64,000 nucleotides of DNA, from contig OZ237740.1 of the NCBI GenBank assembly GCA_965178125.1, positions 1,426,001 to 1,490,000 on the forward strand, written 5' to 3'. Made by a program: the position numbers and the translations under genes. The DNA comes from Bilabrum cf. latius (lineage: Eukaryota). The notes beneath the pieces were generated by a model that was not told where the DNA came from, ran no database searches, and saw nothing but the letters and a program-made list of their open reading frames with translations. This document shows, piece by piece, positions 1-64,000 of the stretch. Every line of letters starts with the position of its first letter. Position 1 is the first letter of the stretch.

Positions 1-542
1 ATGAAGTCACCAAGGGCGTCCGCATCCTGGATGCACCGGCGGCAGGCAGCACTGGCAGCCAATCCGAGACTTCCAAGAAGCGCGACCCGGCGGCACCCAC
101 CCCTGGGTCCCTCGCCCCCATGGAGGGGGTGGGCCCCTCCAGGGTGTGCGGTGCGGCGGCCATCGGGACCACCATCGCGACCCGGGTGCTCTACCTAGCC
201 CAGCCCATGGTGCTGCCCCCATTGCTCTTCGCGTGGCTGGACCAGCGGTCGTCGTGGTGGCAGGGGCTGGCTCGAGGAGGCACGGTGGCGAGAGGGCTGC
301 ACTTCGGGCTGAGAGTTGGCATCATCGGGCTGCAGTCGGCCGTAGCCACGCCCATGTGCGTGGCCCTGTTTGACCCTGTGCAAGCCATGCCCGTGTCCTG
401 GCTGGAGCAGAGCGTCAGGGAGGACGTCCGGGAGGCGCGCAGGCAGCGAGCGCGCTTCGGGCACGAGGGCAAGGATCTGCCGGAGGAGACAATCCGCCGC
501 GCCGAGTCTGAGTCTCCGGTGTATTTCTTCCGTGGTATTTGA
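1..542 (+). CDS. Sideroflexin / mitochondrial tricarboxylate-carrier family protein, 5'-partial
   Basis: Frame is open from position 3. 'TRVLYLAQPMVLPP...ATPMCVALF...VSWLE...VYFFRGI*' resembles the sideroflexin C-terminus (…VYFNKGL). Stop TGA 540-542. Confidence 0.75.
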   Translation, partial: EVTKGVRILDAPAAGSTGSQSETSKKRDPAAPTPGSLAPMEGVGPSRVCGAAAIGTTIATRVLYLAQPMVLPPLLFAWLDQRSSWWQGLARGGTVARGLHFGLRVGIIGLQSAVATPMCVALFDPVQAMPVSWLEQSVREDVREARRQRARFGHEGKDLPEETIRRAESESPVYFFRGI

Positions 543-632
543 GAGCGGAGACGCCCCCTCCTGCCAGTAGTGCGCATTCATGGCTGGTTGCTTGGCGTGC
601 ATGTGCCACGTGGATAGGCCAGTTGCATGGGT

Positions 633-1016
633 TCAATGTCCATCCCCGCTCGCTGCCTCCCCATTGGCAGGCCCTCCAGCCGATGATACTTCCTCCCTTG
701 TGGATGTATCAGCCCCGTCTTCCGTTACAGACTCCCCAGACCCTCCCTCTGACCCGGCTGCCTCCAATAACTTCTTTCTTCGGGCGGCGTTCCTCCTTGC
801 AACTAGCTTTCGGGTCCTCTCCTGCTCCGCGGGCGTCATTTTGTCCCAGTTCGAAATTTGAGACATCGTGCCGTCAGAGTTGAGCACGATTGGACCGAGG
901 TGATCAAACTTCATTTCGTCGGCACTGGGCACCGAGGCTGCCGCACTTCCATCTTCAAGCGCTAGTGTGCCGTCAGCCGAAGTGCCGTCTCCACCAGTGG
1001 GTATTTCACCAGCCAT
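633..1016 (-). CDS. Small conserved hypothetical protein (~127 aa)
   Basis: ATG at 1016, TGA at 633. The core 'KFDHLGPIVLNSDGTMSQISNWDKMTPAEQERTRKLVARRN' resembles an uncharacterised eukaryotic motif family. Confidence 0.6.
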   Translation of the reverse strand: MAGEIPTGGDGTSADGTLALEDGSAAASVPSADEMKFDHLGPIVLNSDGTMSQISNWDKMTPAEQERTRKLVARRNAARRKKLLEAAGSEGGSGESVTEDGADTSTREEVSSAGGPANGEAASGDGH

Positions 1017-1180
1017 AGCCTTGCAGAGGTTCAATGACCAAGAATTTGTAAAGATTGGTACAGCTGCCCACGTGAAAGGCAAGGCAGCCGGTTTTAATCT
1101 TCTTCTTGAAAGTTCAACACAGGCAGCCGGTTGCAACTGCCACTGGCACTGGATTGGATCCACCCGGGCCGGTGGACGCA

Positions 1181-10100: not shown

Positions 10101-13100
10101 GCCCGGGCCCGGGCCTTATCCTTTTCCCTTCGAGTGGCCTCCTGCCGCAGCTCGGCTTGGTACAGCGCGTAGTAGGAGGGCGCCGCATCACGGGTGCCCG
10201 GGCGACTGGACTGCTACTCTGCTGCCTCGCCGCTCTCCAGCTCACCGCCCTGGCCCGGTGCCTGCTGGCCCCACCCCCCGTCCACAATTACCATGGTGCC
10301 GCGCTGCCTCTCCCCACTGAGGCCCAGGTCGTATGCAGTGCTGAGCTTCCCTCCAGCTGCACCCGGCCCTCTACCACCCGCTCCCCCGCTCCCCGGCAGC
10401 CCACTCTCCGCTGCCTGTCTCGCCACTGCCTCCGCCTGCATCCTGCCCAGTTCCTCCCTCGTCTCGCGCAGCACCGCTTCGTGCCTCCCCACGGGCCCCA
10501 GCCCAGCCGTCTTGGCCTCGGCCCGTGCCAGGGCCAGGGAGGCCTCCTCGGCCAGGACCCGCCCCCCATCCTCCACCCTGCCCCCTGCCTGGGCCTCCCG
10601 AGCCTCTTTCTCGCGCCGGGCTCGCATCTCCCAGCCCAGCTGCCCGTCCAGCGCCCCACCTGCCAGACCCTCAGTCTGACTCGCGTCGTACTGCGCAGCT
10701 CGGCTGTCAGCAGCCGCCGCCGCTCTCACCCCCTCCGCCTCGGACGTCCCCTGCGCCCCCGCTCCGCCGCCTACTCCACCTCGCCTCGCGTCCCTCGCCG
10801 GCTCGACGAGAGCGCGATACCTGGCTGCAGCCTCAGAGGCCTCCAGGTCGCCCACTCCCACCCGCAGCTCGGAACGCGCGTGCTCCGTGGCGTGAAGCGC
10901 ACGCTGCAGCTCACCCGCGACTTGTTCCTCCACACGCACCTGGCGAGCCGCCGCCCGCTGGGAGGCCCTCACGGCCGCCTGTCGCACCGCGGCTCGAGGC
11001 AGACCCATGGGCCCGCCCCGGGGCGGGGGCTGCCCACTGAACCCTCCCGCCACTCCGCCTGCCGACGGCGGAGCATCTCCCCGGAGCGTCTGCACCAGTG
11101 CGGGGTGCTGCACGGGGTCTAGGCCGGCTCTGACCATCATGCTCAGCAGCACCTGCCCACCCACGCCGCGTGCGAGGCAGTGCCGCACCCACCGGCCCCA
11201 CGCGGGGGGCAGGGGCTCTCCGTTGAGCCCAGTGCTGCTGAGGCGCTGCCGGGGGTCCTGCAGGTTCAGCGGAAGCAGCGGGGGTTCGTGCGAGAACGCG
11301 TCTGCGGCAGAGCGCCCCTTGGTATTCTAGTGGCTGCCCTGCACACGCACACGGAGCGTGCCTCTGCCACCGGCCACCCTGTGCCTGAAATCGGAGTCGG
11401 TGGGCATGGGCTGCAAAGTCGCGGTTAAGGGCCGAGAAGCAGACGTACTACCGAGCTCTTCTTCTTCGTCTCGAGACTCACGCTGGGATCCTTCCCGCGT
11501 CGGTTTCCGGGCCGAGTGCGTAGGGGACATATCCGGGGAAGGGGCCCCGCCCTCCGAGGGACTGCCTCCTCCTCCTCCTCCTCCTCCTTCACCGCTTCCC
11601 GCGCCCGGCCTGATGCCCCCGAGAGGCAGACGGGGGATGCGTGGTGTCAGAGCGAGCGCACCGTGACTGGCTCCAGCTGGCGACCTCGGGGCCAGACCAC
11701 CCCCCGCGCTCAATGGCCCCAGACTCCGAGGCCCTCCCCCTAACCCCCCCCCAGCCCCAGCCCCAGCCCATCCATCCCCAGTGAGAGCAGGTTCAGAGCC
11801 CGCACCTGGAGTGGTAGTCTCTGCGTCCTTCAGGGCAAGCATCGCCGCTGTGTGCACGCGCCCCAGCCCCCGCAGCGCCTGCGGCCCATCTGGCATGCCA
11901 CCCGCCACGCGCAGCGCCGCCACCGCCTCCACCACCTCCATCAGTGCCCCGCACAGCGCGGGCCGGAAGCCCTTCCTGCTCAGCGTGGCTAGCACCTCCC
12001 AAGGGGGCACCCCCCTCCACAGGTTGTCCTCGGCCCATGCGAACCACCCGTGCGGGATGCAACCGGGGGACACGCGCAGCCCAGGGACCCACTCCCGCAT
12101 GCGGGCCAGGGCGCGCCTGGCTGCCTGTGCCTTAGCCGCCTGGCTCGTGCGGCCGATCCCCTCCACCACCCGCTTTTCAACGACCCTACGCAGGCGAGGG
12201 GGGCGGGGCGCCCTCCTGACCGCTCGGGCGGCCTGCCTGGCGGCCCTGGGCAGCTTGGGCCAGGCCACGGGCAGCACCCGCACTTTGTTCTCCGCCAGGG
12301 ACAGACGGGGGACGGACAGACGGGAGCGGGACCGTCCTTTGCGACCGTGCTTGCCGTGCCTCCGCCGGCCCGACCCACCCCTCGCCCCTCTCCCAGTGCC
12401 TCTCGCCGAATCCGCCCCCCTGCCCCGCGCGCTCTCCCTCGCCATCCAGTCGTCCAGGTCATCACCGCTCGAGGCACTCGCCGCACTCGTCACAACGGAC
12501 ACGTCCTCCCGTCCACTGCCCTCCTCCTCGCCACCTTTCATGCCCCCTCTTGACTAGATCTAGCCACCGACCGATGGTACCGTGCCCGCCTCCCCTGTGC
12601 CGTCCCTGAACGAGCCGGGCAAGCGGCCCCCGTCCAGCGCCTCGACCCACTCGCCCTCCAGCTCCACGCGCATCACGAACGTGTCCACCACAGAGGTACC
12701 ACCCTTGCGGTGCTCCAGCAGACGCCAGTTGAGCGCCAGCCCGCGCACAGCCGCCTGCTCCTCCAGCACAGTCACGGCGCTTCCGCCGAAGATCTCTAGC
12801 AGAGCAGCGGCCCCGCGGAGGCGACCGCGCGCGGGCAGCGCAGCACGAGACGCGCCAAGCACTCTATTGCGAGATGCTCTTGGATCGGCAGTGGTGAGAC
12901 CCTGCCGAAGAGAGTGTACTAGCGTAACGTACTCTGCAAAATCCAGAGCCCCGCTTCCATCCTCGTCCATAGCATGAAAGAGGCGCTCTGCCTCGGCTTC
13001 CACGTTCCCATCCACTTCAACATCCTCTGTCTATGCAAGAGCGAGCACGACCTCCTCTAGCTCCAGTCCACCACTCCCGTCCACGTCTAGCTGCGAAGCG

Positions 13101-13290
13101 GCAGAGCGATGGTGCATGCATTGTGAGTTCGGCCTCGAATGAGTTCGGCGGCTTGCGATGTTCAGCCAAGCGGGAAGAACACACTTACTTGCTTAAAAGA
13201 CTGCCTCAGCTCGTCTATCTCTTGCGGCGAGAAATCGTTCTGCAGTGCTACTGGCACCACAAGTGCAGGTTGGGTCTGTGGGAGGCTCAT
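1181..13290 (-). CDS. Giant (~4003 aa) protein with N-terminal EF-hand pair, ankyrin repeats and long low-complexity/coiled-coil regions; requires TAG=Gln
   Basis: Model complement(join(1181..13090,13189..13290)), with intron 13091-13188 (GTAAGT...CGCAG). Thirteen listed minus-strand ORF pieces share one frame and are separated only by TAG (16 in-frame TAG, no TAA/TGA until TGA at 1181). EF hands 'DVDGSGGLELEE' and 'DEDGSGALDFAE'; ankyrin motifs 'GRTALHWAARRG', 'GDTPVHVAAERGH', 'GESPLHSAA'. Confidence 0.8.
10049..10084 (-). repeat. (GAG)n trinucleotide tract encoding poly-Glu in the giant protein
   Basis: Run of (cct)n on the + strand, in frame as GAG codons on the - strand. Confidence 0.85.
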
Positions 13291-13497
13291 AGTATCTCTG
13301 ATGCTGCCGACCGCGAGGCCACGCTGCAGAGACGCCACTTAATCGCAACAAAAATACATGTCGCTTGCAAACGACAACCACGTCGATGGGTATTTTTGGG
13401 AAAACTTACATTTGATACGTTGGATTTGTTGCGTGCCCTTTTTACAGTTGCAGCAACAGTAGTTTCACTTCGGGATCCCGAGGCTCTAGCAGGCAAA

Positions 13498-15612
13498 ATG
13501 CGGGTATTGCTGCTAGGAATAGCCGCATTATGTTGTATCAGTCTCTTTCGAGCGGCAGCTTTCTCTGTATCTGGCTGTAGCATTTGGTACTCGTCCTGTA
13601 TTCTGGCCTTCAGCAGCTTGATGCTCGTTTTTGTTGGCATTCAGCTTCGTACTGCCCTAGACGCTCAACTCAAGTTGGGTAGGGCCAAGTATTCTTGGGT
13701 ATGGGAGCCTGTCGTGTGGGCTGGGAAGGAGCAGGCGGCACGGGCGATAGCTATTCTCGGAGCATTGGTGCTTGCGGCAGATTTGTTCGTCAATGGAATT
13801 GGTCCGGACCCCAGCTAGCTCTCAGGTGTTCCTTTGCATAGTTATATATTTGGCGCTCCGCCGTCCAATTTCGGAATGCATCTAGCGCTTGGATGCGGGA
13901 TGATGCACGACTGCGTTCATGTTGGCTCCAGCTCGGTCGCTCCGCTGCTGCTCGGCGGGGCTGGCACATCCAACGGTGTGGCACGATTCGATGTGGATAG
14001 GACCTCTGTACTGATTGGGGTGGACGGCACTGAGATTCATGTGGACTAGGGTTCCTTCGCGGCGCTTCCTGGAACGTTCTTGGAACGGTACCCGCCGCAG
14101 CTTAGAGTCGTCGCACAGCCCCTTGCATCCGCAGCAAGCAGCTCGGGGCACGTCGTTGCGATGAAAGTGGACTATCGGCAGCCCATTACACCCGCTGATG
14201 CCCCCGCACCTAAGTCGAGGAGCCTGGGAGCAGCCCCTCCTCCTCCTCCTCCTCACCCTCAGCCAGCCGTGCCCCCACCTCGAGCCATGGAGGGGGAGGA
14301 GCTCTCGCTCGCCGCCGCGGGGTGCATGGCCATCGTGCGCTTCTACCTCCGCAGGAACGGGGCAAGACTAGCAGGCACGCAGGCGACTGCTTGCTTCGAG
14401 TTGCGGAGCTCCCCCCCGCTAGCCCCGCAAGCTCCTCCGCCCACGGTTGGTCGGCAGCTCGCGCACGATGTAAACGACCCGGAGCTGTATTGGTGGACGG
14501 CTCAGGCGGCGGGTGGATCTCCCGCGGCTCCGACAGAAGGGGCTCTGGCTGGGCGGCCTCTGCTGCCGGCCCAATGCGGCGGATTCCCTGCCGTGGTGCA
14601 CCAGACCTGGAAGACGAGCGAGCTGCCGGCGTCCTACCGGGAGTGGCAGGGGACGTGGCAGCACGCCATGCCGGGGGTTCGGCTCGCGCTGTGGACGGAC
14701 GAGAGCAACCTGGAGCTGGTGAGGAGAGCGGCCCCGTGGTTCGAGGCCTCGTACCTGCGGCTGCCCAAGCCCATCGAGCGGGTGGACGCGGTGCGGTGGG
14801 TCTACCTGGCGGCCTACGGGGGGGTCTATGCCGACCTGGATTTCGTGGCGATTAGGGACCTCGCTTGGCCTCCCGCCAGCAGGACGGCAGAGGGGCTCGT
14901 CGAGAGAGGGGGCGCGGCGTGTACGGACGCGGCAGAGGGACCACCCCGTGAGGGCGACAGCGATCGGGTGGTGCGATCCATGGCAGACAGCGGCGTGCGG
15001 ATGGGGCCCGGGGCGGGAGGGGCAGGAGTCCCGGAGGGGGGACAGAGATAGGGCCAGGGAGAGGGTTAGGACTAGCCGGGGCTGCCTCTCCTGCCCGGGG
15101 ATGGTAGGGGGGAAGGGGTCCCCGGCTCTTCCCCCACCGGCTCGATGCCCCCGCTCGTGTCCTCTCTGGTGCTGGACCCCGCCTACGACGTGGTGCTGGG
15201 CCTCATGGATGCGTCCCCATGGCAGCGGCCGCACAACCTGCCCAACGCCTGGATGGCCAGCAAGCCCGGGGTGGGGCTCTGGACGGACTGCCTCCGGGAC
15301 CTGGACGATAGGGTCCGCAGCGGGGATGTGGGCGAGCACACGGCGGTGGAGACGGTGGCGGGGCCAGTGGCGCTCAAGGCCTGCGTGCAGCGGCACGGCG
15401 GCAAGTACCGCGTGCTCATGCACAGCCCAGAGGTGCTGTACCCGCACGACTGGTCTCGCAAGGGGCGAGGCGAGGGCTGTGAGACGTGTGCAGAGGGCAT
15501 GCCCAGTGAGGTGCAGGCCAGCAACCCTGGCACCCTCGATGAGGCCCTCCGGAGGCACGCGCCGCTGTCGCACTCCGCAACTTTCTGGACGCACTCTTGG
15601 GCTTCACAATGA
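13498..15612 (+). CDS. Glycosyltransferase family 32 (DXD; OCH1/SUR1-like) with hydrophobic N-terminal segments; requires TAG=Gln
   Basis: ORF pieces ending 13818, 14049, 15051 and 15612 share one frame. TAG at 13816, 14047, 15049, 15067, 15073; TGA at 15610. Motifs 'PAVVHQTWK', 'LWTDE', 'ERVDAVRWVYLAAYGGVYADLD', 'NAWMASKPG', 'TGP-like AGP', 'WTHSW'. Start codon uncertain. Confidence 0.8.
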
Positions 15613-23344: not shown

Positions 23345-23456
23345 TTCCGCGCATGTTTTTGCGCTGATTGGGTTTTGCGTCCACCTCGAACGTTCCACCA
23401 CGAGGTTCGCTGGACAGCGCAGACGCAAAACAAGCTGCTGATAGCGTATAATCATC

Positions 23457-33936: not shown

Positions 33937-33983
<47 letters not shown>

Positions 33984-47685: not shown

Positions 47686-49800
47686 TCAAGAGGCAGCGGC
47701 AGGCGGCAGCTCGACAGCAATGCCGATGCGCTGGCACGCCCCGATACAGGTCTTGAGGGGCTTTTGAAGATCCTCCACAAGCGGACCGAACTATTCTTTG
47801 TATCCATGTTCCATTCCCGCCAGCGCCCCCTCCAGCAGGTGCAGCCTGGTCGCGAGGGCATGCCCGATCCGTTGCGCGTGCTCAGGGGCTGGTGGTGCAG
47901 CGATTCCACCCACCGAGCCCGCAGAGGCCACCATGCGCCAGGCCGCTGCCATGAGCTCTGCATTGGCCGCTGCACTTTCCACGCACCAGGACCGATAAGC
48001 CTCCGGGATGGACATGCGGATCCCGTGCTGATCCACTCCTCCAGCCTCAGCCTGCTCTCCCACACCCCCCGCACGCCCAGCAGCAGTGCGGCGCTGGGCC
48101 AGACTGCCTGCCCTCGAGAGGTGCAGAGAGACGCTTGCAGCTGCTTTTGTGAACGTTGGGTCCGGTGAGAGCACGCGGGCACCCACCATAGTAGTTTTCT
48201 TCGGGTGCTGTGCGACAGAGCCCGTGTGGATGGTACCATTAGGTCGCACCGTTGACCGGCGACCGCTAGCGCCCGGCAAGCGCGGGGGAAGGAGGTCTCG
48301 CGGCAAGCTGTCCCCTTGTCCGCCGTGCTAGCTCAATGACCCTGCGCCCGCACCATCTCGGGCACTACCATTACCAGGCCCGGGCCTGGAGGGCACCAGC
48401 TCCTCCAGGCCCTCCTCGCTCTCCACTGCAGGGCCCCTTGCACCCAGGCCGCACCCTCTCGCCCGTTTCCCGCCGCTCCTATCCTCCTCCAGCACTGCAG
48501 CCCCGTACCTATTCAGTGAGTCAAACACGCCCTCCGCCTCGGCGTCCCGGGCCAGCACACGCACCGCGTCACGGGTGCTGCTCCTGCCCGCACCACCACC
48601 CCCGCCTCGATCGAGAGAACCTAGTGCAGCATCATCGGGTGCGTAAAGGCGGGCCGCCTCCCCAGTGCCAAACCCGGACCTGTATCTGTAGTCCCCACTA
48701 AGTCTCTCCTCCAGTGATGCGGTCAGATCCGTCACGGTAGTTGAGAGTGCTTGTCGAGCACCCGAGTGCCGCGCCTCGAGGACTGCAATCTCTGCCACGT
48801 GCCTGGCATCTTCTCGGAGCCAGGCATCCACAGCTCCACCCTTGATGCCGCGAAAGAATCTATCTGGATTGCCTAGCAAATCCGCGAGCATAGCACTGCG
48901 ACCCGAGGACGTCGTTACGTCCACGCCATCGAGCGCGATGCCTGGCGCTGGCCGGGGCTACCCGCCTGATGGAGCCCCAATCGATGCAACTGCCCCTGAC
49001 ACTTGCGATTCTACTATTCCCCATGTGCGCGCGTCTCTTCCTATGTCTCTGTCCTGTCGCGCTTGCATGTACCGTCCCCAAAACTCCGCTGGAGACATGG
49101 GCTTTGCCGATTTGCTCGGTTTGGAGGCAGCAGGATCGATGGGAGGGGAGACCTTACCCAGCACAAACTTCTGGTAGGCCTTCAAGGTAATTGGTTCCTA
49201 ATAAAATATCTGTGCTGCTTTCGCTTGATCCACGCGGATGGTCGACTTGCCTCCTTTCACCTCGTCGATCCGGCTGTCTGGCGGCTGGGACGGCAGTGTG
49301 GAGCCCGCGGATACTTTCGCTTCCAAACCATGAAGCTTCAGCAAATCTTGCCGTCGTGCCCAAAAGTCATCCTCTGTGACCAATCCACTTTCAACAAACT
49401 TTGAGAACTCCTTGCGCAAGGCTGAGCTGCGCTGCATTGCAGTCGCCCTCAAGGCCGCTTCCGCGCCAGAGTCTACTGAGCTAACCCCAGCTGAGCGGAT
49501 TGACTTAATTGTGACCAATAGTTGAACTACTGCGGCCTTTCGTTCGTCGGCAGAGACCTCCCCAGCCGTGGTAAAAAACCGCAAAACGTGGCCAGGTCCA
49601 TTCTTTGCCTCTGAGAGCAACAATTTTGCTTCGCCTTTGCGCTGCAATATTGAATGCACTTTGCATAAATCAATTATCGCGGTTTTACTCCCATGCGCCC
49701 ACGTTGCTACCCGGGCTTGCTAACTAATCGAAAGGTGCCCACGTCTACCCTTCGTGTCCGGGCCAAGGAGAGGTCCTTTCACGATTTCGCACAACGACAT
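47686..49800 (-). CDS. GTF2H1: TFIIH subunit p62 (Tfb1/GTF2H1)-like, BSD domains (~704 aa); requires TAG=Gln
   Basis: PH-like N-terminus, BSD-type segments 'FVESGLVTEDDFWARR' and 'QIFY*EP...KAYQKFV...MSPAEFWGRY', C-terminal 'ELMAAAW'. TAG at 49720, 49198, 48958, 48328, 47791; TGA at 47686. Confidence 0.75.
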
Positions 49801-50109
49801 TATGCAGTAGTTAGAAGGCCGTGCACTTGCCGCGAGCTGGAGTCTTGAGTTGTTAGCAAATGCGGCTTGGTTGAGAGCAGGAATTCTGGTGTGCAGTGTG
49901 ACGACTTGCTGCTGTGCGAAGTGGCACGGATCCATGCAGCGGACCGTAGACTACCACGGCCCGTGCATGCTGCCCCGCATGTCCACAGCCCATCCTCATT
50001 ACACATCCATGCATCCTCACATGCACAGCCACTCCGCCTCCCTCACTGCCTGCAGCCCTTGTCCTAGCCACGGACTGGCTGTAGGCCACGCGGCGAGAGA
50101 CCACCAGCC

Positions 50110-51189: not shown

Positions 51190-52354
51190 TCAGAATGCCT
51201 CAAGCCACTTCGTGTAGTACACGCATGTCTCAGGGGATACCTTGCTGCTGCCAGGAAAGCAATCCTCTGCCACAGGGCACATGCCGCAGGGCACGCTGGT
51301 CAGTGCAGGCGCGGGGAGCTTCTTCCGGATCCTCTTGTACCGCACGGTGGCCTACATCACCTTTTCCTGGGCGATGGCGCGGCGGACATCGGCGCTGAGG
51401 GCGCTCTCGCCCGCCTTGCGCTCACCGGAGCTTGCAGCGGAGGCACTCTTGCCCGCACGCCCGGAGGACGAAGACGAGGACGAGGACTCCCCGCTGGCGC
51501 TGGCAGCGCCCCCAGCGGCCGGGCCGTCGTCTGGGATCCCCAGCCCGGCGCCAGCCGAAATGTCTGCCGCCCCACCACCCGCGTGCTTGGGTGGCATGGC
51601 GGCGACGGCCCTGTCCATGACCAGCGAGTCGATCACCTGCTGCACGTCATCCGTGCCGAGCGGGATCTTGGACACGCCGCTCTTCCGGATGTGCTCCGCG
51701 ATCTCTGCTCGAGTCTTCATCGAGCCCGCCGGTTGCAGGAATTGAGCAACTGATCTTCGCAAGGAATTTATAAAATGCGTGTCCAATTCGCCATCAGTGT
51801 ACCACGCCCCCCCTGTGACCTGCGCCGATGGAACCAATTCGTACAGCATGTAGATTTTGCGACTCTTGAAAGTCACACTTTTCACGCTCTTGATCAATTT
51901 CTTCCCTTCAAGCCTTTTCAAAGCCTTATTCATCGCAGCAACCTGCAATTTAGTCTGCGACTTGATGGTTCTTGTCCAAATACCGACATCGCCGGCCTCT
52001 CGAATAGCTTTCAGGACCTGCTCGTCTTCCGGAGAAAGGGTTCCCATCTTGTTAGCCATTCTCTCAGAAAAGGCTTTGAAAGATATTTCTCCAGAGGCAA
52101 GCTTCTAGGGCACAATGACCTTCTGCGGGACATCACGGGGCACGTTGTATTTGGGAGGCGAGCAATATGCACGGCAGGCACGAAACCCGTCAAACACCAT
52201 CAGTGTAATGGCTCACAGCATCAATTAGGGACCGGATCGCTTTCATGTGATTCTTGATAGGGCCAAATGATTTCTCCAGCTCTTTCTGTCCAACTCCAGT
52301 GGGGTGCTGCTGGATGAAAGCAAGGAGTTTTCTAGCCGCAGGTTCATCCGCCAT
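51190..52354 (-). CDS. POLR3F: RNA polymerase III subunit RPC34/RPC6 (~356 aa); requires TAG=Gln
   Basis: complement(join(51190..52122,52217..52354)). 'GIWTRTIK', 'LKRLEGKKLIKSVKSV...KIYMLYELVPS..VTGGAWYTDGELD..FI'. The C-terminal 4Fe-4S motif 'PCGMCPVAEDC...SPETCVYYTKWL' lies downstream of TAG 51352. Second TAG at 52105. TGA stop. Confidence 0.92.
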
Positions 52355-52548: not shown

Positions 52549-53997
52549 ATGCTGAAGGGCCTGCATGGCATATAGAGACTCATTGGGTGGGACCCAGGCC
52601 GTCGTGGGGTGCAACACTTGATACGAGAGGGCGAGGCGGGGCTCGTTGGAGCTGCCAGCCTGCTCGCAAAGGCAACTGCAGTCGGGATCTTGACTGGCTT
52701 TCCATGCGTGCAAGCAGAACCTCCGACTGAGAATGACGGAATTTGTGGTGCTGTGTTGCTTGGAATGGCACTGGTGCGATCTGGCATTCGTGTCACATTG
52801 ATGACGGATTCAACGAACGAGGCTGTTGTGGAGGCCAGTGCAGCCTGCGGTCGCAAAATTCTAGGGAATGATGCTGCCCTGGGCGTTGCATGTTTTGCAC
52901 CAATGAGTAAAGCAGAGTACTTTGCAGATTCTGCGGCGGTAGACCCAGCAGGAACACCAGTAAAATGTAGCAAGTCATTCGATCGGCTGGTGCGCGAGAG
53001 CGCAAGTCTGGACTGCCTCATTGCCATTGAGCGAGCGTCCCCAAGCCCTAATGGGCACCCCATGACGATGCGTGCTAGGTCGATGTCTGGCTTGGTTGCC
53101 CCATTGCACTGGATGTTCCCGCGCAACGTTGCAGCAAGCTCTGCAGGAGCTGATCTCGAGCTCGATCGAGATCGGGCCATGCAGGACTCGTTCTTGCGTG
53201 TCGTCCGTCAATCTAGAGCGGGTCATGATGGGGCTGGCGCTGCATCAGTTGGTCCGGTAACTGGCTCCAGCGAGTCCTGTGATGCTATCGGGGCAGCAGC
53301 AACCGCAGCAGGAGCAGGACCAGACAGCCGTGTGGCACAGGCTCCTGTGCCCTGGCCCTGGCGCACGGCTTGCGTGGGTGATGGTGGCAATGAACTGGGC
53401 ATGGGTGCCGTTGCAGAAGCCGTGGAGGCACACGTGGACCGGGGCGCCGAGATCGTCAGTGCGTTCGGGTGCGAGAGCGTGGTAAGCGCTGGAGTTAGCG
53501 AGTGGGGAGCCATGGGCATCGCGGCGGCAATAGCGGACATGTCGGCGGAGGGTGGAGAGAGTAAGGGACTGAGTACCATGAAAGATGCAAAGAGAGGTGA
53601 TGAGGAGGCAGGGGAAGTGCCTGAGAGCGCAGGTGAAGCCAGCGGAGATGAGAGAAGCACAGCTCGAGGGGCACCACCCTCTGCTGAAACGACGAATGAT
53701 GGCAGTCGAAAATCCGACGAATCAGTATTTTCAGGGCGCGACCTAGGGCCCAAAGGTGCTCATTTTGAGCTGCCTTCCGAGCTTATTCTGGCGGCAAGCC
53801 CGCCCTCTGAAGCAGCCGCAGCGGCTCGGAGGCGCTTGCTTCCCTCTGTCGAGCAATACGGGGCGCTTCTCGATGCGTGCGCTTCTGCTGGTGCGAGAGA
53901 TGGGATCCTTGGATCAATTGGCAGGACAGTCGATGGGCTTGATTGGGAAGTTCATGCTCAAATGCTGAGGGCATGCAGAGGCGACTTGTCGGGCTAA
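52549..53997 (+). CDS. DUF4392 / D-glutamate cyclase C-terminal-like domain protein (~482 aa); requires TAG=Gln
   Basis: 'DPGRRGV', 'ILTGFP', 'ENDG..GA', 'IAIER', 'MRARSM', 'GDGGNELGMG', 'VSEWG', 'RDG...VDGL'. TAG at 52573 lies between ATG 52549 and the DPG motif. Stop TAA at 53995. Confidence 0.8.
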
Positions 53998-54262
53998 ATT
54001 GGGGGGTTCTAATTTTAACGCATTTGTAGCGTGCACAATTCGTGGTTTTCGAGAACAGGAGCACCGCAGTCGTTTGTAAGGCGCTGTGTCCGGCCTAGCT
54101 TATTGCAGGTAGGCTCGTTGCCGTATTTCGTTTCTTAACGCTTTACTTGTGGCGTTGTGAGCATCTGTACCCCAAGTAGTAGCATGCACCGCTACCCAAA
54201 CAACGCCGATCTTTCCTTTGATCCCGTGTACCGTGCAGCCCTCTCATCGTTCTGGCGCAGCA

Positions 54263-57200
54263 ATGACATCCGTCCTGAAGCGCCGTCACGTGTTTTCGAG
54301 CGATGTTGGTGTATTGAAGCGTGCTGGCCTTCGCTTGTTCGAGAGACTTGCAGCCTCGGGCATCGGAGCGCAGTCTGTCGGCGAGCTCGAGCAGGTTGGT
54401 CCCACTGTCTCACGGTTGGCGGACTCCCTGCAGCAATCAGAAAAGCTGCGTATATTTGAAGAGTGGTCGCCGCCGCGTAACCCGCCAGAGGAGGTCATCA
54501 GCCTGCGTGGAAAAGGGGTTGAATGCTTCTGCTCGTCGCAGTCCGACGATTCGCACAGCGCTGAAGCAGTCGCGCAGAACGAGGCTAAGGTGCATCCATC
54601 ATCTGGTTGGCAAGCAGGAGGCAAGCGAGGAAAGATGAAGTCCAACTGGGGCGTTGACCTTGGTCGAACCGAGATGATCAGCCAAGTCGATGTCGTCTGG
54701 GGCCAGGTGCAAGTAACGGCTGCCTCAGGAGGCAACAAGGGTGATTCTCTGCCAATCAAGGTTCGCGTCGAGGTGGCATCTCCCAAGGGCGAGTGGGTGA
54801 AGGCATGCGTGATGCGCATTCACAAGGACGACGTGGAGGAGGACAAGAAGAAGGTAGAGGCAGCCCGGCAGCAGGGGGTAAGCACCGGCCGGAAGCGCGG
54901 GAAACGCCGCGGAGGTCCCGCCATTCCGGACGATGATGACGACGATGAAGATGAGGAAGATGAGGAGGACGAGGAGGAGGACAGCAGCGACGACGAGGAC
55001 GATTTCTTCGACGACGACGAGGGCGGGGGCGACGGGCCCGCCGCCTCGGGTCCCAAGCCCACTATCGAGAAGGAGAGGCTCGCCGCGGACGGCGGGTACG
55101 GGCCTGCCCTGCCACCTGAGATGATGGCAGCCCTGGGGCTAGCCCCTGCGCCAGTCGCTGCTGCGGAGGACGAGGCCGATGGCGAGGAGGGCGCTTCTGG
55201 CAAAGGGGGCGCGGCTTCCGGGGCAGGTGCGGGCGGTGATGCTGCCGGTGAGGGCAAGGGGGCCGGGGCCCAGGCATCGGGGGATGGCAAGGAGAAGAAG
55301 ACCAAGACCTTTTAGCAGGTTGTGGGCCGCCCGGTGCGCCGCCGGCTGCGCATCCCAGAGGTGGCTGGCATGCCGGTGTCGATGCGGTTCCGCAAGCCCA
55401 TCCCTGGCCGCCGCATCCGCCTACGCATGGACGGCGTGCTGGAGAGCAACGACGCACAGGCCCACGCCATCGCCGAGGTGAAGATCGTGAGCCCCATGGA
55501 CGCCGAGAAGGCTCCCTCCGCGGCCCGCTCCGTGGCTGCCCTGCGTGACTGGCTAGCGGACATCGTGGCCATGTGCGCCGACAGCCGAGGCGCGGGGGAG
55601 AGGACCCGGGCTGCCGCCTTGCGGGCACTGGCTGCGCTGGCGGCCTCGAGCGGCAGCATGGCGGCCATTCTGGCGCTGGTGGAGGCTTTGACAGCGGGGG
55701 AACGCGGCGTGCTCCAGTAGATGCAAAGCCAGCCCGCCGGAGGGTCGGACGGCTCGGGTCTTGCGGGGGACAAGGACCTGGCCAAGGTGCTTGACCAGCT
55801 GGCACTGGATCTCCGCAAGCAGGAGAGACGCGTGAATGCCGAGGTAACCAAGGCAGAGCTGAAACCGCCCGTGCTGCAGGGGGGCGGCGGCGGGGCTGCA
55901 GTGGTCGAGTTCCAGCCAAAGTTCGACGGCAGCTTCACGGGTGTCCCGAACCGCTACATGCAGCTGCAGAACGGGGACCAGGACGCCTATTCGCAGAGCA
56001 GTAACGCCACTGCCTTCACGCTGGCGGGTGGGTTCACGCATGGGAAGGCATCGTGGGAGTTCCTGCTGGTAAACGACACCACGTCTTAGTGCTCGTGCTT
56101 CGGAATGGGTCTCAAGCCTATCGTGGACACAAACTACTCGTCTAGTCCCCAGATGCTGCTCTACAGGTCGTTCAATGGACAGAGGTACGACCGTGGCCGC
56201 CCCCTGTCCACGCCCGCCATGCCCAAGGTTAACAAGGGCGACCGCATTCGCTTCGACCTTGACATGGATGAGGGCACGTGCAGCGTGGCTGTGAACGGGA
56301 GGCCCGCTGGCGTCGCATTCACTAACCTCAAGGGCCTCGCTATCTGGCCATGCGCGCATGCCTACAGCTCCAGCCGCACGATGCGGATCCTGGCCATCCA
56401 GGGCCCGCCGGAGTTTGCGAATGGCTGCGGCATTATTGGTGTCGCAAGCGGAGGAACCTCTGAGGCCGGCAAATCGCAGGGCAGCGGAGGTAGCATGGGT
56501 GTGCGTGTGGGTCCGCTGGGCGAATACCACCGGGTGGCGCAGGCTCTGCAGCTCGATGCCGTCCCCGAGTCCGCGCTGTACGTGCCCGCGGGAGTGCTCG
56601 GCAGACGCGGGGCGGAAGGAGCCCACCCGGACGATGACGCGGCGGAGGGCGTAGTGGCGCAGGTGCAGGTACGTTCCCCCAAGGACGGTATCGACGGTGA
56701 CTTGCCGAGGCCGCGACCTGGCTAGGTGGGGAACGCCGGTGCCGGCATGGATGCCGACCGGCTGCGTACGCTGCGTAAGAAGAATCTGAGCGCGCCGGAT
56801 CACAGCCTGAGCATGCGGTGTCCCGAGGAGAAGGAGTGCCTGCGGCACGTGGGAGCGCTCACTCTGGCGAGCTACAAAGCTGGTGACGACAGCCCGGAGC
56901 CTGAGTCCAAGGCCGCAGAGAAGGGCGATGATCCTGACGCAGACTCGGACGAAGACGAGGCAAAGAAAAGCAGCAAGTCCGAGGACAGCGGGGCTCCGAC
57001 CGGCGCTGCCCTCCGAGCCATCGGGGCGTCCTGCGCTAGCCTGGCCCAGGCCTTGGCGAGCACCTCCCAGGAGGAAGGCGAGGAGCCCGCATCGGGGGCT
57101 GCTGGAGGATCGGACAAGCCGAGCAAGTCCCGGGTGCAGGCTCCCTCGAGCTGTGATCTTGCTAGCGTGCTGCCTCTTGCATGGGACGCAGCAGAGAGGC

Positions 57201-59398
57201 CCTACTGCTTCACGGCCTTCCACCTGGGCCGCAGGTTCAAGCGGTTCTCGACGCAAGCGGGCTTCTCGGCCAGCCTGGGCGTGCTGGTGGACGACGACGG
57301 CGAGGACGACGAAATCACCAACGCGGCCCCCCCACGCATCGCCGGTGTGATCGAGGTCATCGGTGACGGGAAGGTGCTCTGGAGAATGGACAGGGCCGTA
57401 GCCCCGGGGGACACGTTCGATGTGGACGTGAGCGTGCTGGATATCGATGTCCTGGTGCTGCGAGCAGGGTCTGCGCACGCCGATCTGGGCGTGAACGCTG
57501 TGTTCGTGAAGCCTGCTGTGGAGGTTTGCGACGACTGGACCTGTGCCGGGTGGAGAAACGACCGGTTTCAGCTCAATTGCGAGATGTGGGGGAATTTCCG
57601 CGGCAGGATGCCCGTGCTGAACGCGGCTGCCACCACAGGTGATGGTGGTTCCGGCGGCGCTGCTGGCGGCCCCTCCTCTGGAGCAGGCGGCGACTCTGCC
57701 AAGGCGCGGGCAGCCCCAGCAGGCACCCCGCATGCCATTGCGGCCTAGTTGCTCTCAACCGCTAGCTCTGTTGCCCTGCAGCACGCCCGTGAGATGCAGG
57801 TGGAGGCGGCCAAGAGGGGTCCCTCCGAAGAGGGCGAGTCTCCCTGGGACCTCGAGAGCCCCTATGCCATCGAGCTGTCCGGAGATGGCCTGGCGGGGCT
57901 GGCCAACGCAATGGTCAGGCTGCGGGCCGCGGTGCGGAACCCGTCGACCCCTGCAGACCTGAAGGACTGGGCCGCGGGGGCGCTGACCGACCTCTTGTTG
58001 GTCACTTTTGCGAATCTGCGGCGGCTGGTGGTGTCTCGCGTGGATGCAGCGGAGGCCGAGGGGCTCCATGGGCTGTCAACGCAAGAAAAGGCGGCCCGTG
58101 CCGCTCGGGCTGCGCTGCTCACAGGCGGGGCGGCAGACTCGGCAGCAGCAGACACGCCGGCGGGCGCTGCTTCCATGAGCACAGACCGCCTTGAGGCAGC
58201 GGCTGCCACTGGCACGTTGCAAGGGCTCGCTTCCGTCCTCCACGCACTTGTGGGCGACGCGATGCTGCCCGGGCAGGTCCGGGAGCGAGCCTCCAAGGCG
58301 CTGCAGGCAGGGCAGTCGCTTCTATTCAAGTCAGAGCGGGACGCGCGCGAGTTCGTGCGCGAGCAGCTTGGACTCGGCGAGGAGGCCGAGGAGGTGAGCG
58401 GGGGCATTTCCGCGGCTGCTGGTGAGGCCGTGGGTGGCGGCAGCGGGGCAGTCGTGGAACTGGAGTTCTCTTGGCCGTCCAGCCTCCTCACACCCGCAAC
58501 GGATCCGGCGAGCAAGAGCAAGGGCGGCAAGGGCAAGGGGGACGATGCCTCCGCGGGCGAGCTGCCCCACGAGGCGGTGCTTGACACGGCGCTGCTTCGG
58601 CTGCGCCTCGAGTGCTAGCGGAGGGGCCTGCAGCACCGCGTGATCGGCCACTGGCCAGCACGCGCCTACCTGGTTGTGTGTCTGCCCACCCGCGAGGAGA
58701 TGCAGGCCTTCGTGGGCACCTTGGGGACTGAGGGAATGGACGACGGGCAGGACACTGGGGAGGCCGCGGGGGCCAACCCGTGGGAGGCTGTGGGGGTGCA
58801 GCTGGGGGGCAAGGGAGCAGCGGTCGCGGCGCAAGCAGGCTTGGTCAAGGACAGCGGGGGTGGGTCAACTGCAGCCTCCGCGACGACGGCTGTGGGCAAG
58901 GGGTCATCTGCCCCTGCCAGCGCGGCGGCGGGAGCTCCGGCTGGGGTAGTGCCTCCACCTGCCAAGGGGGGCATCGCGGCCGCAAGCACGGTGGCAGGGC
59001 CGAGCAAGGGCGGTGATGGTAGTGGGCCCGCTGGCAGCGGCGGGAAGCATGGCGCGGTGTCCACGGACCTGCACAGCATGCGGGCGAGGAGGGGGGGGCG
59101 CGGTCGCAGGGCCCGCCTGCCGGTGGAGGGTGCCCTGGGTCGTGCGCTGGTGGGGGCGGGTCTGTGGGACTGGCAGGACCACGCAGGTAGCAAGCTGGCC
59201 GACGTGCCCCTCAGCGTGGAGCCGAGCCCCGAGTGGTCCCGTAAGTACTTCCTACCTGCGCAGCCACTTGCATGCGTCCGCTTGTACGCCGCGGCAAACG
59301 ATGGTGCTGATTCCACCATGAAGCGCGTGGTCGAGTCGATCCAGGACTTCTTACCAGCAGCCGGGCCGGTCCGAGACGCGGCCGTTGCAGTTGCCTGA
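54263..59398 (+). CDS. Large (~1711 aa) protein with discoidin/F5-8-like, SPRY-like and NPCBM-like segments; requires TAG=Gln
   Basis: Seven same-frame ORF pieces separated by TAG at 55313, 55718, 56087, 56723, 57746, 58616; TGA at 59396. SPRY-like 'GKASWEFLL...CFG...GDRIRFDLDMDEGTCSVAVNG...GVAFTNL'. NPCBM-like 'FSASLGV...EVIGDGKVLW'. Acidic tract. Confidence 0.72.
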
Positions 59399-59544: not shown

Positions 59545-61569
59545 ATGCGAAACTTCTGCGTCCTTGCGGCATTACCCATAGTAGTGTTCGGTGCTCAAGT
59601 ATCTCAGACGAGGTCCTACGAGGCTGTGAGGCGGGCTTTCGAGCAGCCCGGGTGTGCCAGCTCGCGGCTGTTGGGGAGACGTCACCAGCGCATTTTGCGT
59701 GGCCTGCAGGACAGCGTACCCGTTTGCAATGCAGCTGTCCAAGATTGCTCCATAGACAATTATGCTTCGTCGGATATTTATGCTATCGAATGGGCCAACT
59801 ACACAACGACAACAGCTGGTGGACCTGAACGGGTAACCTGCACCTTCGGCGATCAGTATCGCACGTACGTCGTGCCTGGCACTGCAGGGACAACGAAAGC
59901 CATCTTGTACTTCTCCGGTGGCGGTGTATGTCTCTCAGCGCAAAGCTGTGGCCTCCTATCACCTCTTCAAGGCCCTTTTGATTTGCCTGCTGGAAGCTTG
60001 GGCCCTCTTCAATTCACCACGGCCTCTATCCCTTCCTCGGATGCTAGCGATGCATTTGAGCATGTTGACACCGTGATGGAAGGGGGCCATCTCATATTTG
60101 TGCCGTACTGCACCGGTGACGTGTAAGTTTATGCTTGCGCACAAGCTCGATTGTGCAGTTGTGCTATCCCATCGTATTCAGTGATAGTAATCCCTGTATT
60201 GTTTAAAAAACCTCTCAGGTTCATGGGTAATTAGGTCCACACGTACGAGGCGCAATTGCCATCTCTTGGGGTAGGCATGACCATCGAAGAGGCGAACTGG
60301 CAGCGCGCCGCAGACCTACTCGCTGGCGCGAATAGGACCTTTGACGGGAGTCGAATCGCAACTGTTGATACGCAAACAGGCACGGCGAGTACGACGATTC
60401 GGCACCTCGGACGTGGTGTTGTCAAGCAGGTGCTAGACCTCCTCGGCGGCAGCCCTGACCCCGCCACCGGTGCCGTGCGAGGCGTCGGTATTTTGCCGGA
60501 TGTCCCTGACCAGCTCGCCGTGATGGGCTGCTCGGCCGGGTCGATGGGAGCACAACTGGCTGCTCCCTTGCTCTACTAGTGGGCAAAAGCCGTGGGTGTG
60601 GGCTCTCTCTCGCTGGTGGCCGACAGCTTCATCGGGGCCTTCGAACAGACCGCCACCCTGCAGGGCGCCGTCCGCTCGTTCGCGGGGTGCGGCCTGTTCC
60701 CGCTGGGGGCCAGCGGGGCCACACCCAGCGATGATGAGGACGGAGGGGGCAGTGCCTGGGCTTTCGGGTCCCTGCGGGCCGCGGTGGTGGCAGGCGGCTA
60801 CACCCGCGAGCGATGCCTTGAGGGGACCATGGAGCTCAACCTGCCAGTCATACTAGCGGCGGCAATGGCGGGAGTGGCGGATGACACCGATGATGATGCG
60901 GTCCCCGTGTCCTTCGCCAGCGTGAACATTGAGGGCGATTACCAGCAGGTGGGCTACAACCAGATAATGACCAAGCCTTGGCCCCAGGGCCTGGATGCTG
61001 CTGCGTCCTACGTGGTGGTCGAGACGCTGAGGGCGGCCTTCGATCGGAACTTTGACGCTGCCGCTTTCAACCCTGGGCCAGACGAGCTGTCAGAGGCCTT
61101 CAGGGAGGCACTGGAGGAGTGGGGGCCCCTTCGAGACGCGGGGATGCGCGCTCTGCAGGAGAGCGGGGCGGCCGTGTGGATGGGGGACGGCACCGCCCAC
61201 TGCGTGTCTCCGTACGCCGAGCGGTTCACCGAGATGGAGTTCCTTACGGGGAAGACCCCGGCAGCCTTCGTGGGTGACGTGCTCCGTCTGCAGGCAGAGG
61301 CAGTCGCGGGTATGGAGGACGATGGCACTGGCAGCGGGGACTACGACCCGGCCGTGGTGCAGGGGGCCAGCCGGTGCGCGCCCTGCCTGCTGGGGCTGGA
61401 ATTCTGCCAGGATGCAGCAAGGGTGCAGGGCGGGCCGGCAGAGAACGGCTGTGGTACTGCAGGCGACGACGATGAAGGAGAGGACGGAGCCAGTCGTCGG
61501 AGCCCAGCTGTGTGGCAAGGGTGGCTAGTCGCGCCGCTTTGCGTGGCTGCATGGGTCCTAAGCCGCTAA
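59545..61569 (+). CDS. Pectinacetylesterase/Notum-family esterase, secreted, possibly GPI-anchored (~642 aa); requires TAG=Gln
   Basis: join(59545..60122,60219..61569), intron GTAAGT...TCTCAG. Signal peptide, 'YFSGGGVC', 'FVPYCTGDVFMGN*', 'GCSAGS', 'ADS', 'AHC', hydrophobic C-terminal tail. TAG at 60232 and 60577; stop TAA at 61567. Confidence 0.8.
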
Positions 61570-61767
61570 ACAGTCGCTCGACCCATTCGTTGCTATTACA
61601 TTTTAACAATTGCTTCTCCCATAAATCGCTCATGCACCTGCATAATTGCCAGTTGTTGTCGGGGGCCTGCAGTGCCGTCAAACTGCACGTTACCTAGGGA
61701 ACATGAAGACAAAAACAAGATTCTCGAGGAGAACCCGAAAATACTCGAAAAAAAGCGCAGCACAGCA

Positions 61768-62593
61768 ATGGAGGTGTACAAGTGCCTTGCTTCTGATGAT
61801 GAGATGTACTCCTCGGCCATGCGCCCGAGCCCCGTTAAGGAGCTGGGGACCTGCACGATCAACGGAAAGGAGGTGAGCTGGGATTGCACCAGTTGCGGCT
61901 TGCAGCTGCTCGAAACTCGACTGTTTCCAACTTTTTCTTTGGATCCTCTCCGGTTTATTTTTATTTGCCATTCGAATCATTGCAGATGCCCATCCTTGTG
62001 AGCATCAGCGCCACTGAGACCACCGAGGACAACACCGGTGGAATCGAGGGCGAGGATGTGGATGATGCCGAGGAGCGCAAGCTGAACTATTTCTGGCAGA
62101 TGCCCCACATGGAGAATGATCACACCGATTCTCTGCTCACCAAGGGCAAGGACCCCAAGGGGAAGGCTGTGAGTGCAACCGTGCATTCGGTCAAGATTCT
62201 GTTGGGTTGCTGCTGAGAATCGCATGTTGGCCTTCCATTTCTAGCTCATTTCGTGCGCAGCTCTCTAAGTTCAAGAACTGGGAGACGTACTACTTCAAGC
62301 CGTACGGCAAGTCTGTGATCGCTTCGCTGCAGAAGGAGCACGGCGTCGAGAACGTGGATGTAGAGGAGGTGCAGAAGGCGCTCATGAAGCTGCACGGCTG
62401 GGTCAAGGAGAACAAGGGAGAGCTCTCCATCTTCGGCCCTGCCCAGTACGTCGGTGACGACTCGATCGACCTGACCATGCCGGGCAAGAGCGCCAAGGCT
62501 GTGCGCGCCGTGTCCACCCTGGCCTTCCAGATCTACTCGGCTGAGTGCAACTTCTTCGTGTTCCGCCCCGCCTGCAAGCCCGAGAAGTTCTGA
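61768..62593 (+). CDS. TPT1: Translationally controlled tumour protein (TCTP)-like (~206 aa)
   Basis: join(61768..61872,61986..62168,62261..62593), two GTGAG...GCAG introns. 'MEVYKCLASDDEMYSSA', 'EGEDVDD', 'YFKPYGK', C-terminal 'EKF*'. No internal TAG. Confidence 0.75.
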
Positions 62594-63116
62594 GATGTGT
62601 GCAGTTTTGATGGCGTGTTGGGCGCTCCGGCAGCCTACCGACTTCAGGGTTTAACTTGCTTCTTGAGTTGAAATGGACAGCCAGCGTTCAGTAGAAGACA
62701 ACTCGGACCGCTGCTGCGGCGTGCCACACGCTGTGCGGTGTAGGACTCGTACAAGACGCTTTGTTCGCCACCGCGAATGAATTTTGCCATGATACTGCCT
62801 CAAACCCACAACTGCAAGCACTCAACACGCCCGTCCGACGCGTATTCGGAGCCACTGCCAGTGCCAGCATCCAGCGCAAACAACACAGATTTAATTGATG
62901 CAGCAAAGTGCCGCAAAGACAGTATGCACAGTTTGCAAACTTCATCCTAGCAAGTACAAGTGCCCGCGATGCTCCGTCCAGACGTGTTCTTTGGGCTGCG
63001 TCTTGAGCCACAAACAACAGACTGGCTGCAGCGGCAAGAAAGAAGCTGTTCCGTTCATTGCTGTCAAAGAGTATACCGACAAGAAATTCCACAGGGACTA
63101 TCATTTGTTAGAGTCT

Positions 63117-64000
63117 ATGGCGCAAGCATCTGATGCTGCACGGCGGGATATTCGGCAGTATGGCACTCAAATCGGTGCGAGCCGGCAACGCGGACGGAAA
63201 AAGCAGCCAGAAACGTCAAAATGGAACGAATCACTGCAAATGGACGGGCTACAAAACTCCCCAAAGCTCCCTACTCTGCCAAGACCGCTGTATCGTCTCG
63301 TGATGGCAGCAAGACAACGGGGAATCGATCTGCGTCTCATGCCAAAGGGGATGGTGAAGAGGGATACGAATACAACGCGGTTGTGCTCGTCTCGAAGTTT
63401 GTGCGGTATATTGCCAAGTAGAGGATCTGTGCTGGCTCATAGGGTTGCCAACGGGAACAGACCCTCACCTGGGACGTCTGTCGTTGTTAGTCCAGCATAC
63501 GCAGCGGGGCGACTAGCGTACGGTCTGGTTGGGACGCAACCGACTGGCGTTTCGGAGTCAGATCAAAAGCGACGGCAGCCTAGCTCTATAGCACCTCACT
63601 CGCAGAGTGAAGCGATAGATCGATCACGAGCATCAAGGAGGCGGTCCAACCGGAAGCGGCGCCGCATCGAGGTCGAGACCCGCACGGTTGCAAGCACGGT
63701 CACACCGCAGTCTGGAGAAGAGTTGCGAGCAGAAAATGAAATAGAAGATCCACGAGAATCAAAGAAATCAAGAGTAGGGCAGCTGGAGAGCCAACCGGGC
63801 AGGTTGGTTGGGCCGAAGGATACCGCCGCAGACCAGCAGTCGGCTGGGCCGAAGGATACCGCCGCAGACCAGCAGTCGGCTGGGCCGAAGGATACCGCCG
63901 CAGACCAGCAGTCGGCTGGGCCGAAGGATACCGCCGCAGACCAGCAGTCGGCTGGGCCGAAGGATACCGCTGCAGTCAGGCAAACTCTTGAGTCTGGCAC
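63117..64000 (+). CDS. Hypothetical protein, 3'-partial, containing 12-aa tandem repeats
   Basis: Frame is open from ATG 63117 to the window end with no stop. Basic NLS-like 'RRRSNRKRRR'. Repeats of GPKDTAADQQSA. Confidence 0.45.
   Translation, partial: MAQASDAARRDIRQYGTQIGASRQRGRKKQPETSKWNESLQMDGLQNSPKLPTLPRPLYRLVMAARQRGIDLRLMPKGMVKRDTNTTRLCSSRSLCGILPSRGSVLAHRVANGNRPSPGTSVVVSPAYAAGRLAYGLVGTQPTGVSESDQKRRQPSSIAPHSQSEAIDRSRASRRRSNRKRRRIEVETRTVASTVTPQSGEELRAENEIEDPRESKKSRVGQLESQPGRLVGPKDTAADQQSAGPKDTAADQQSAGPKDTAADQQSAGPKDTAADQQSAGPKDTAAVRQTLESG
63810..63974. repeat. 36-bp perfect tandem repeat, about 4.6 copies
   Basis: Unit GGGCCGAAGGATACCGCCGCAGACCAGCAGTCGGCT at 63810, 63846, 63882, 63918, with a partial copy at 63954. 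Confidence 0.95.

Follow-up and report, generated by a model that had tools for sequence, protein, structure and literature searches.

UAG as a probable glutamine codon, with UAA and UGA as stops, in a 64-kb window of nuclear DNA from Bilabrum cf. latius

The genes on a 64,000-nucleotide (nt) stretch of contig OZ237740.1 (positions 1,426,001 to 1,490,000, assembly GCA_965178125.1, Bilabrum cf. latius; this whole stretch is called the window here, and positions are counted from its first letter) are crossed in frame, many times over, by the triplet TAG. This raises the question of whether UAG is a sense codon in this organism and, if so, which amino acid it encodes and which triplets terminate translation. 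An initial annotation, made from the letters alone, had proposed that UAG encodes glutamine (Gln, Q) while UAA and UGA still terminate translation. The window is eukaryotic nuclear DNA with a G+C content (GC) of 58-72% and holds about 24 recognisable genes. Amongst these are typical eukaryotic genes for casein kinase 1 (CK1), a RecQ helicase, Arv1, a Cid1/MTPAP-like nucleotidyltransferase, a CCDC113/CFAP263-like protein and a sortilin/Vps10 receptor, together with PP2C, Rpc34, a 60S acidic ribosomal protein, a D-glutamate-cyclase-like protein (GLUCM) and a zf-HIT/BCD1 protein identified by Pfam and PDB matches. Our analysis points to a nuclear code in which UAG is an ordinary Gln codon, UGA the main terminator and UAA a minor one, a reading to which we assign a probability of about 0.88. 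Its assignments are identical to those of NCBI translation table 15.

In-frame TAG and translation termination

With TAG read through, 21 stop-to-stop open reading frames (ORFs) contain 93 in-frame TAG triplets, and 20 of the 21 carry at least one; a subset of 20 ORFs contains 90. Of the 93, no fewer than three are noncoding, since those at 15935 and 30693 are intronic and the one at 15776 lies 24 nt upstream of the start Met of CK1. Treating TAG as sense yields longest ORFs of 4003, 1745, 1303 and 1094 amino acids (aa), compared with a maximum of 733 aa under the standard code. When TAA is treated as sense instead, the longest ORF is still 733 aa and no long ORF is lengthened. With TGA as sense many ORFs open, as expected because TGA is the commonest stop triplet in GC-rich DNA, and none is longer than 1033 aa.

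The bodies of 13 ORFs supported by Pfam or PDB matches comprise 12,756 codons, in which TAG occurs 63 times, CAG 427 times and CAA 84 times, so that TAG accounts for about 11% (63/574) of the Gln-type codons. TAA and TGA do not occur in these codons; as the frames were bounded by TAA and TGA, the zero for internal TAA is partly built in. If the ratio of TAA to TAG equalled that of CAA to CAG (0.20), about 12 internal TAA would be expected, and observing none has a Poisson probability of about 4e-6.

A both-flank test and checks of the ORF ends were added to offset the circularity introduced by delimiting frames in this way. In the both-flank test, every TAG, TAA and TGA triplet on both strands was asked to have 30 or 50 codons on each side that were free of TGA and TAA and coding by codon log-odds. 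Depending on the threshold, the test was passed by 29-72 of 754 TAG, by 0-2 of 371 TAA and by 0-6 of 1336 TGA triplets, a contrast that is clear despite a weak coding-score classifier, which recovers 29-72 of the roughly 90 ORF TAGs (less than 80% at best). At the loosest settings two TAA are let through, namely the terminator of CK1, whose downstream score is 0.06-0.08, and a triplet that lies antisense to another gene. A same-frame TAA at 60124 was also considered as a sense codon and rejected on its coding scores, 0.05 before the triplet and -0.13 after it.

Amongst the 20 ORF ends, 15 are TGA and five are TAA, the latter in CK1, the methyltransferase, CCDC113, the GLUCM-like gene and a 480-aa ORF (Table 1). 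The coding score drops after all 20 ends, with downstream values of at most 0.08, and GC at codon positions 1 and 3 is also lower past them. A stop triplet could be intronic, because the introns described below begin with GTGAG or GTAAG; no GT donor was found before any of the five terminal TAA. The TGA of Rpc34 falls at the same point as the C-terminus of its homologues, and none of the 20 ORFs requires TAG as its end. Altogether, the initial annotation's count of roughly 90 in-frame TAGs, its observation that most genes are interrupted by TAG and never internally by TAA or TGA, and its retention of UAA and UGA as stops are all borne out by these results.

The residue at UAG and its presence in RNA

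TAG was translated as X in homology alignments to avoid a bias toward Gln. In both PDB alignments of CK1 with solved CK1 structures, X stands opposite Q in the motifs GIEQSRRDD and LPWQGLKA, and the columns of these two TAGs (16454 and 16526) are Q in 119 of 119 homologues, while three other CK1 TAG columns are variable. The alignment comprised 119 of 120 homologues, with P0059 omitted; this top CK1 match (484 bits) was rejected as a close relative because its score stems from an internal duplication. In CCDC113, the column of TAG 39626 is Q in 41 of 57 homologues and that of TAG 39926 in 37 of 57. Summed over the 13 usable columns of CK1 and CCDC113 (one mostly gapped CCDC113 column was skipped), the log-likelihoods were -31.6 for Q, -49.5 for A, -49.7 for S, -52.6 for E and -57.8 for L, making Gln the best residue by 18 log units.

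Additional evidence comes from Rpc34, in which P0179, a relative from a public assembly that is 98% identical, has Q at the site of TAG 51352-51354; P0180, the database's standard-code call for the Rpc34 of the window, terminates at this same triplet. The frequency of Q within three positions of a TAG is 10.0%, compared with 4.7% overall, and TAGs are found inside Q runs at the sortilin N-terminus and in the ORF at 32735-34378. The alignment columns, the near-identical relative and the Q-rich surroundings support Gln as the meaning of TAG in the window genes, and they agree with the initial annotation, which had placed TAGs at conserved Gln sites and in poly-Q tracts.

Seven public sequencing runs contain the stretch, and four of them were compared over 15001-35000. 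Contigs in this region show six splice joints that skip 87, 87, 87, 91, 152 and 156 nt, in keeping with the introns of about 90-160 nt expected from the initial annotation. The skipped segments have GT..AG ends (CT..AC for a minus-strand gene), with GTGAG or GTAAG at the 5' end and GCAG or ACAG at the 3' end. Run X5 shows all six joints and X6 three of them; X1 shows none, its contigs being collinear with the window. X5 and X6, which carry another organism label and belong to another study, were taken as complementary DNA because of the splice joints. A length of exactly 87 nt is shared by three of the six introns supported by RNA, namely those of CK1 and of the gene at 25040..25863 (Table 1) and a third at 29561-29647.

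The X5 contig bearing the CK1 joint (15742-15861 joined to 15949-17067) matches the window with no other letters and includes seven TAGs, amongst them both invariant-Gln sites. In total, 12 TAGs lie on three joint-bearing X5 contigs, all with no other letters; in records 9 and 13 the skip is shown in the listed pieces, and record 14 was linked to the 30637>30790 joint by matching depth. With six further TAGs on unspliced X5 contigs, at least 18 of the 35 ORF TAGs of 15001-35000 are covered. UAG is thus present in spliced RNA. The check for U-to-C editing that the initial annotation had called for returned no CAG at these sites, and since the spliced contigs still carry TAG, editing to CAG does not account for these sites, at any rate in the RNA form that dominates.

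Several side observations were made in the same comparison. Contigs of X5 and X6 have loose ends at 16184 and 16222, where they depart from CK1 into a different CK1-like sequence; this may represent a paralogue, or these runs may contain a second organism. One X6 contig of depth 3.6 lacks one base at 17206 in the C-terminal tail of CK1, a low-depth error or a variant. A contig of X7, a run labelled as a protist metagenome, differs from the 849 nt at 34146-34994 by 63 letters and 16 gaps, with its indels clustered in the intron, which indicates that a related species, roughly 92% identical, exists in an environmental sample.

Several points weigh against UAG as an ordinary Gln codon. All of the evidence comes from this one 64-kb window and its genes. 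The labels of run type read 'RNA? (a guess)' and, for X5, 'probably DNA', and Logan contigs drop rare variants, so that partial editing may be hidden. In the 50 codons before the stop, the coding score is 0.05 or less at 6 of the 20 ORF ends. No tRNA gene (ARAGORN), no match to an Rfam family and no eRF1 gene was found in the window, and the decoding mechanism given below is for this reason wholly inferred. Further points of this kind belong to particular alternatives and are weighed with them.

A code like translation table 6 would have UAA and UAG both encoding Gln and UGA as the sole stop, with in-frame TAA rare through the high GC. Coupled reassignment of the two UAR codons is far the commoner pattern (PMC5304391, PMC11687900), A-ending codons are disfavoured in the window (CAA/CAG = 84/427), and over 963 codons past the CK1 TAA the frame meets neither TGA nor TAA and scores weakly positive. 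Reading through that TAA would fuse CK1 to RecQ, and translation past the CCDC113 TAA would continue for 882 codons in a frame opposite the sortilin gene. Additionally, the GLUCM TAA comes 7 residues after a Pfam match that reaches position 289 of 291. Together with the dozen or so TAA that are missing from the supported codons, the loss of coding signal after all five terminal TAA without a splice donor, and the failure of TAA alone to extend any long ORF, these observations leave a table-6-like code very improbable, and table 6 is rejected for this window. A code in which UAG is Gln within genes and a context-dependent stop near some 3' ends is improbable as well, to a slightly lesser degree. 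Ambiguous codes are known from some ciliates, of the Condylostoma and karyorelict types, and, for UAA, from Blastocrithidia, and a TAG-TGA tandem at 32928-32933 on the plus strand makes some terminal use of UAG possible; its TAG could be a relic of a former stop or a plain C-terminal Gln. Likewise, 12 codons separate the last CCDC113 TAG (40739) from the TAA, and 49 of 57 homologues are gapped in that region. Yet TAG is not required at any ORF end, P0002, the closest relative for CCDC113, has a tail of similar length as judged by eye from unaligned sequence, and TAGs are distributed along whole genes, 16 of them in the 4003-aa ORF.

Assignment of UAG to a residue other than Gln (other lineages use Glu, Leu, Ser or Tyr) has precedents in Leu, Ser and Glu elsewhere (PMC11687900), and Glu is the commonest residue in three CCDC113 TAG columns (18/39, 35/57 and 48/57 lettered rows), with M, A or W in three more. 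It is contradicted by the two invariant CK1 columns, the summed likelihoods, the Q of P0179 and the TAGs inside poly-Q runs, and we consider it highly improbable. The least credible explanation is that there is no code change at all and that the TAGs are assembly errors, pseudogene lesions, intronic or edited to CAG. Two of the 93 are indeed intronic, as noted above. Against this, four DNA-like runs contain 100% of the sampled words, the spliced contigs keep TAG unchanged, TAGs occur in 20 of 21 ORFs, CK1, Rpc34 and RecQ amongst them, and lesions to TAA or TGA are absent.

Gene content of the window

The features of the window are collected in Table 1. The CCDC113/CFAP263-like protein matches chains of axoneme structures in PDB, which fits an organism with a flagellum. 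No Pfam family was found for seven of ten smaller ORFs and six long ORFs in the window, and the methyltransferase ORF matches only generic methyltransferase clusters in the ESM Atlas (Mollusca, Ascomycota and bacteria), which are uninformative for placement. A tentative reading of 59311-61569 as a pectin-acetylesterase-like gene was dropped as unsupported by Pfam.

Table 1. Positions, strands, in-frame TAGs and ends of ORFs and genes in the window
Feature	Position	Strand	In-frame TAG	End and remarks
Giant ORF, 4003 aa	1181..13192	-	16	TGA
Glycosyltransferase (DXD sugar-binding region) ORF	12928..15612	+	6	TGA
CK1 gene	15800..17425	+	6 coding: 16226, 16454, 16526, 16601, 16787, 16997	TAA 17423-17425
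CK1 exon 1	to 15863	+		spliced contigs
CK1 intron	15864-15950	+		87 nt; spliced contigs
CK1 exon 2	from 15951	+		spliced contigs
TAG on invariant Gln of CK1 motif GIEQSRRDD	16454..16456	+		alignments; spliced X5 record 9
TAG on invariant Gln of CK1 motif LPWQGLKA	16526..16528	+		alignments; spliced X5 contig
RecQ-family helicase ORF	17426..20317	+	7 in stop-to-stop frame, first two probably upstream of coding part	TGA
Alpha/beta-hydrolase ORF	21170..23731	-	4	TGA
Gene without assigned family	25040..25863	+	3, in exon 2	TGA; intron 25360-25446 (87 nt)
Arv1-like gene	26035..27939	+	1 (27412)	TGA 27937-27939
Methyltransferase ORF	28023..29318	-	none	TAA 28023-28025; X5 record 13 collinear across TAA
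Gene without assigned family	29853..32933	+	3 coding: 31761, 32247, 32928 (last immediately before TGA)	TGA 32931-32933; introns 30101-30191, 30639-30790
Q-rich and Cid1/MTPAP-like nucleotidyltransferase, one gene	32735..38290	+	5 in Q-rich N-terminal part (one within poly-Q run), 2 in nucleotidyltransferase	TGA; intron 34375-34530
60S acidic ribosomal protein gene	38460..38903	-	1 (38877)	TGA, 6 residues past end of Pfam match
CCDC113/CFAP263-like axonemal coiled-coil gene	39341..40780	+	9	TAA 40778-40780
Sortilin/Vps10 receptor gene	40912..44196	-	8, six in Q-rich N-terminal region	TGA
PP2C phosphatase ORF fragment	45126..46229	-	1	
769-aa ORF, no Pfam family	47686..49995	-	6	TGA
RNA polymerase III subunit Rpc34 gene	51190..52212	-	2	TGA at homologues' C-terminus
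D-glutamate-cyclase-like (GLUCM) gene	52549..53997	+	1	TAA 53995-53997
1745-aa ORF, weak SPRY match	54161..59398	+	6	TGA
480-aa ORF, no Pfam family	60127..61569	+	2	TAA 61567-61569
ORF without TAG	62120-62593		none	
zf-HIT/BCD1 gene	62895..63998	+	none	continues beyond window end

The 4003-aa ORF is an unbroken frame of 12 kb with long low-complexity stretches and no evident intron; a pair of EF-hands lies at its N-terminus, ankyrin repeats are found around residues 1580-1700, and there is a weak match to a Gly-rich domain. The two halves of the gene at 32735-38290 flank a 156-nt intron whose removal, shown by both X5 and X6, leaves them in one frame; the joined gene encodes about 1,800 aa, poly-Q in the N-terminal half. 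The sole TAG of the 60S acidic ribosomal protein gene is residue 9 of the frame, upstream of both the first Met and the Pfam match (residues 50-141).

Arv1 and the methyltransferase are convergent, with ends 83 nt apart, and a single 4.5-kb X5 contig spans both ends, so that their 3' untranslated regions probably overlap. A short frame at 50176-50535 on the plus strand has a strong coding score and a Lys/Ala/Gly-rich tail of KKGGAKK repeats, followed by TGA at 50533.

Decoding, relation to known codes and implications

Decoding of UAG as Gln would be carried out by a dedicated tRNA-Gln with anticodon CUA, derived from tRNA-Gln(CUG) by one anticodon change; such an anticodon pairs with UAG and not with UAA (PMC5304391, PMC9161772). 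It would be accompanied by an eRF1 that still recognises UAA and UGA but no longer UAG, a change of the kind proposed for Iotanema spirale (PMC5304391), in which the GTS motif of eRF1 is altered (PMC5304391, PMC9161772). Because 16 TAGs lie in one 4003-aa ORF, decoding would have to be efficient, which argues for a dedicated tRNA over near-cognate readthrough. Most TAG codons probably arose by C-to-T change at CAG, at weakly constrained or Q-rich sites.

Table 6, with both UAA and UAG as Gln, is used by many ciliates, some Ulvophyceae, hexamitin diplomonads, Streblomastix and an aphelid. These codes have UAG as Gln in common with the window, and in both the new Gln codons gather in Q-rich and variable regions; the window differs in that TAA is never in frame and terminates 5 of 20 ORFs. 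The window also does not look like ciliate macronuclear DNA in its high GC, its ordinary introns of 87-156 nt and its long multi-gene contig. Additionally, the CCDC113 match to a chain of the Tetrahymena PDB entry 8tek is weaker than those to two other axonemal entries.

Decoupled codes in which UAG is Gln and UAA a stop are described for Iotanema spirale, Protocruzia tuzeti and two phyllopharyngean ciliate lineages (McGowan et al. 2024, PMC11687900). The fornicate Iotanema spirale (UAG as Gln, UAA and UGA as stops; Panek et al. 2017, PMC5304391) has the same three assignments as the window and the same predicted machinery of tRNA-Gln(CUA) and a UAG-weakened eRF1. The window differs from that case in its evidence, which is genomic and consists of a 64-kb multi-gene contig with introns and high GC. 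Protocruzia tuzeti and the phyllopharyngeans resemble the window in that UAG is decoupled from UAA and is likewise read as Gln. UAG alone was also reassigned, with UAA kept as a stop, to Leu in the rhizarian exLh and to Ser in Scotinosphaera (PMC11687900), residues that are 26 and 18 log units worse than Gln in the window.

The type of code is thus already known, though rare, and the window is at most a further case. The named CCDC113 homologues (4 of 57) are all stramenopiles, namely two Triparma, a pelagophyte and Aphanomyces, which may be a weak hint of stramenopile affinity that is biased by the selection of candidates. No description of UAG as Gln in such an organism was found in the literature searched, which consisted of open full texts without subscription journals or supplements, and a search naming stramenopiles turned up no nuclear code change in that group. 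The organism appears to be another lineage with UAG as Gln, perhaps an undescribed one. That the decoupled code arose here once more and independently, in a flagellate that is GC-rich, carries introns, lies outside ciliates and fornicates and is possibly a stramenopile, is a tentative proposal to which we give slightly less than an even chance.

These results have practical consequences, as a standard-code annotation of the assembly would be badly fragmented; besides the truncated Rpc34 call P0180, the 4003-aa ORF would be broken up into 17 pieces. The eRF1 and tRNA pair would be of interest for engineered amber suppression. Few cases exist in which UAG and UAA differ in meaning (PMC11687900), and codes split in this way are informative about the usual coupling of the two codons. 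With genomic DNA, a GC-rich genome and near relatives (P0179 and run X7), this case would allow the change to be dated, the tRNA-Gln(CUA) to be found and the eRF1 changes that set UAG apart from UAA and UGA to be read. If the origin is indeed independent, UAG, the GC-richer UAR codon, should not vanish by mutation pressure in a GC-rich genome, which would favour an ambiguous-intermediate or a tRNA/eRF1-driven route over simple codon capture.

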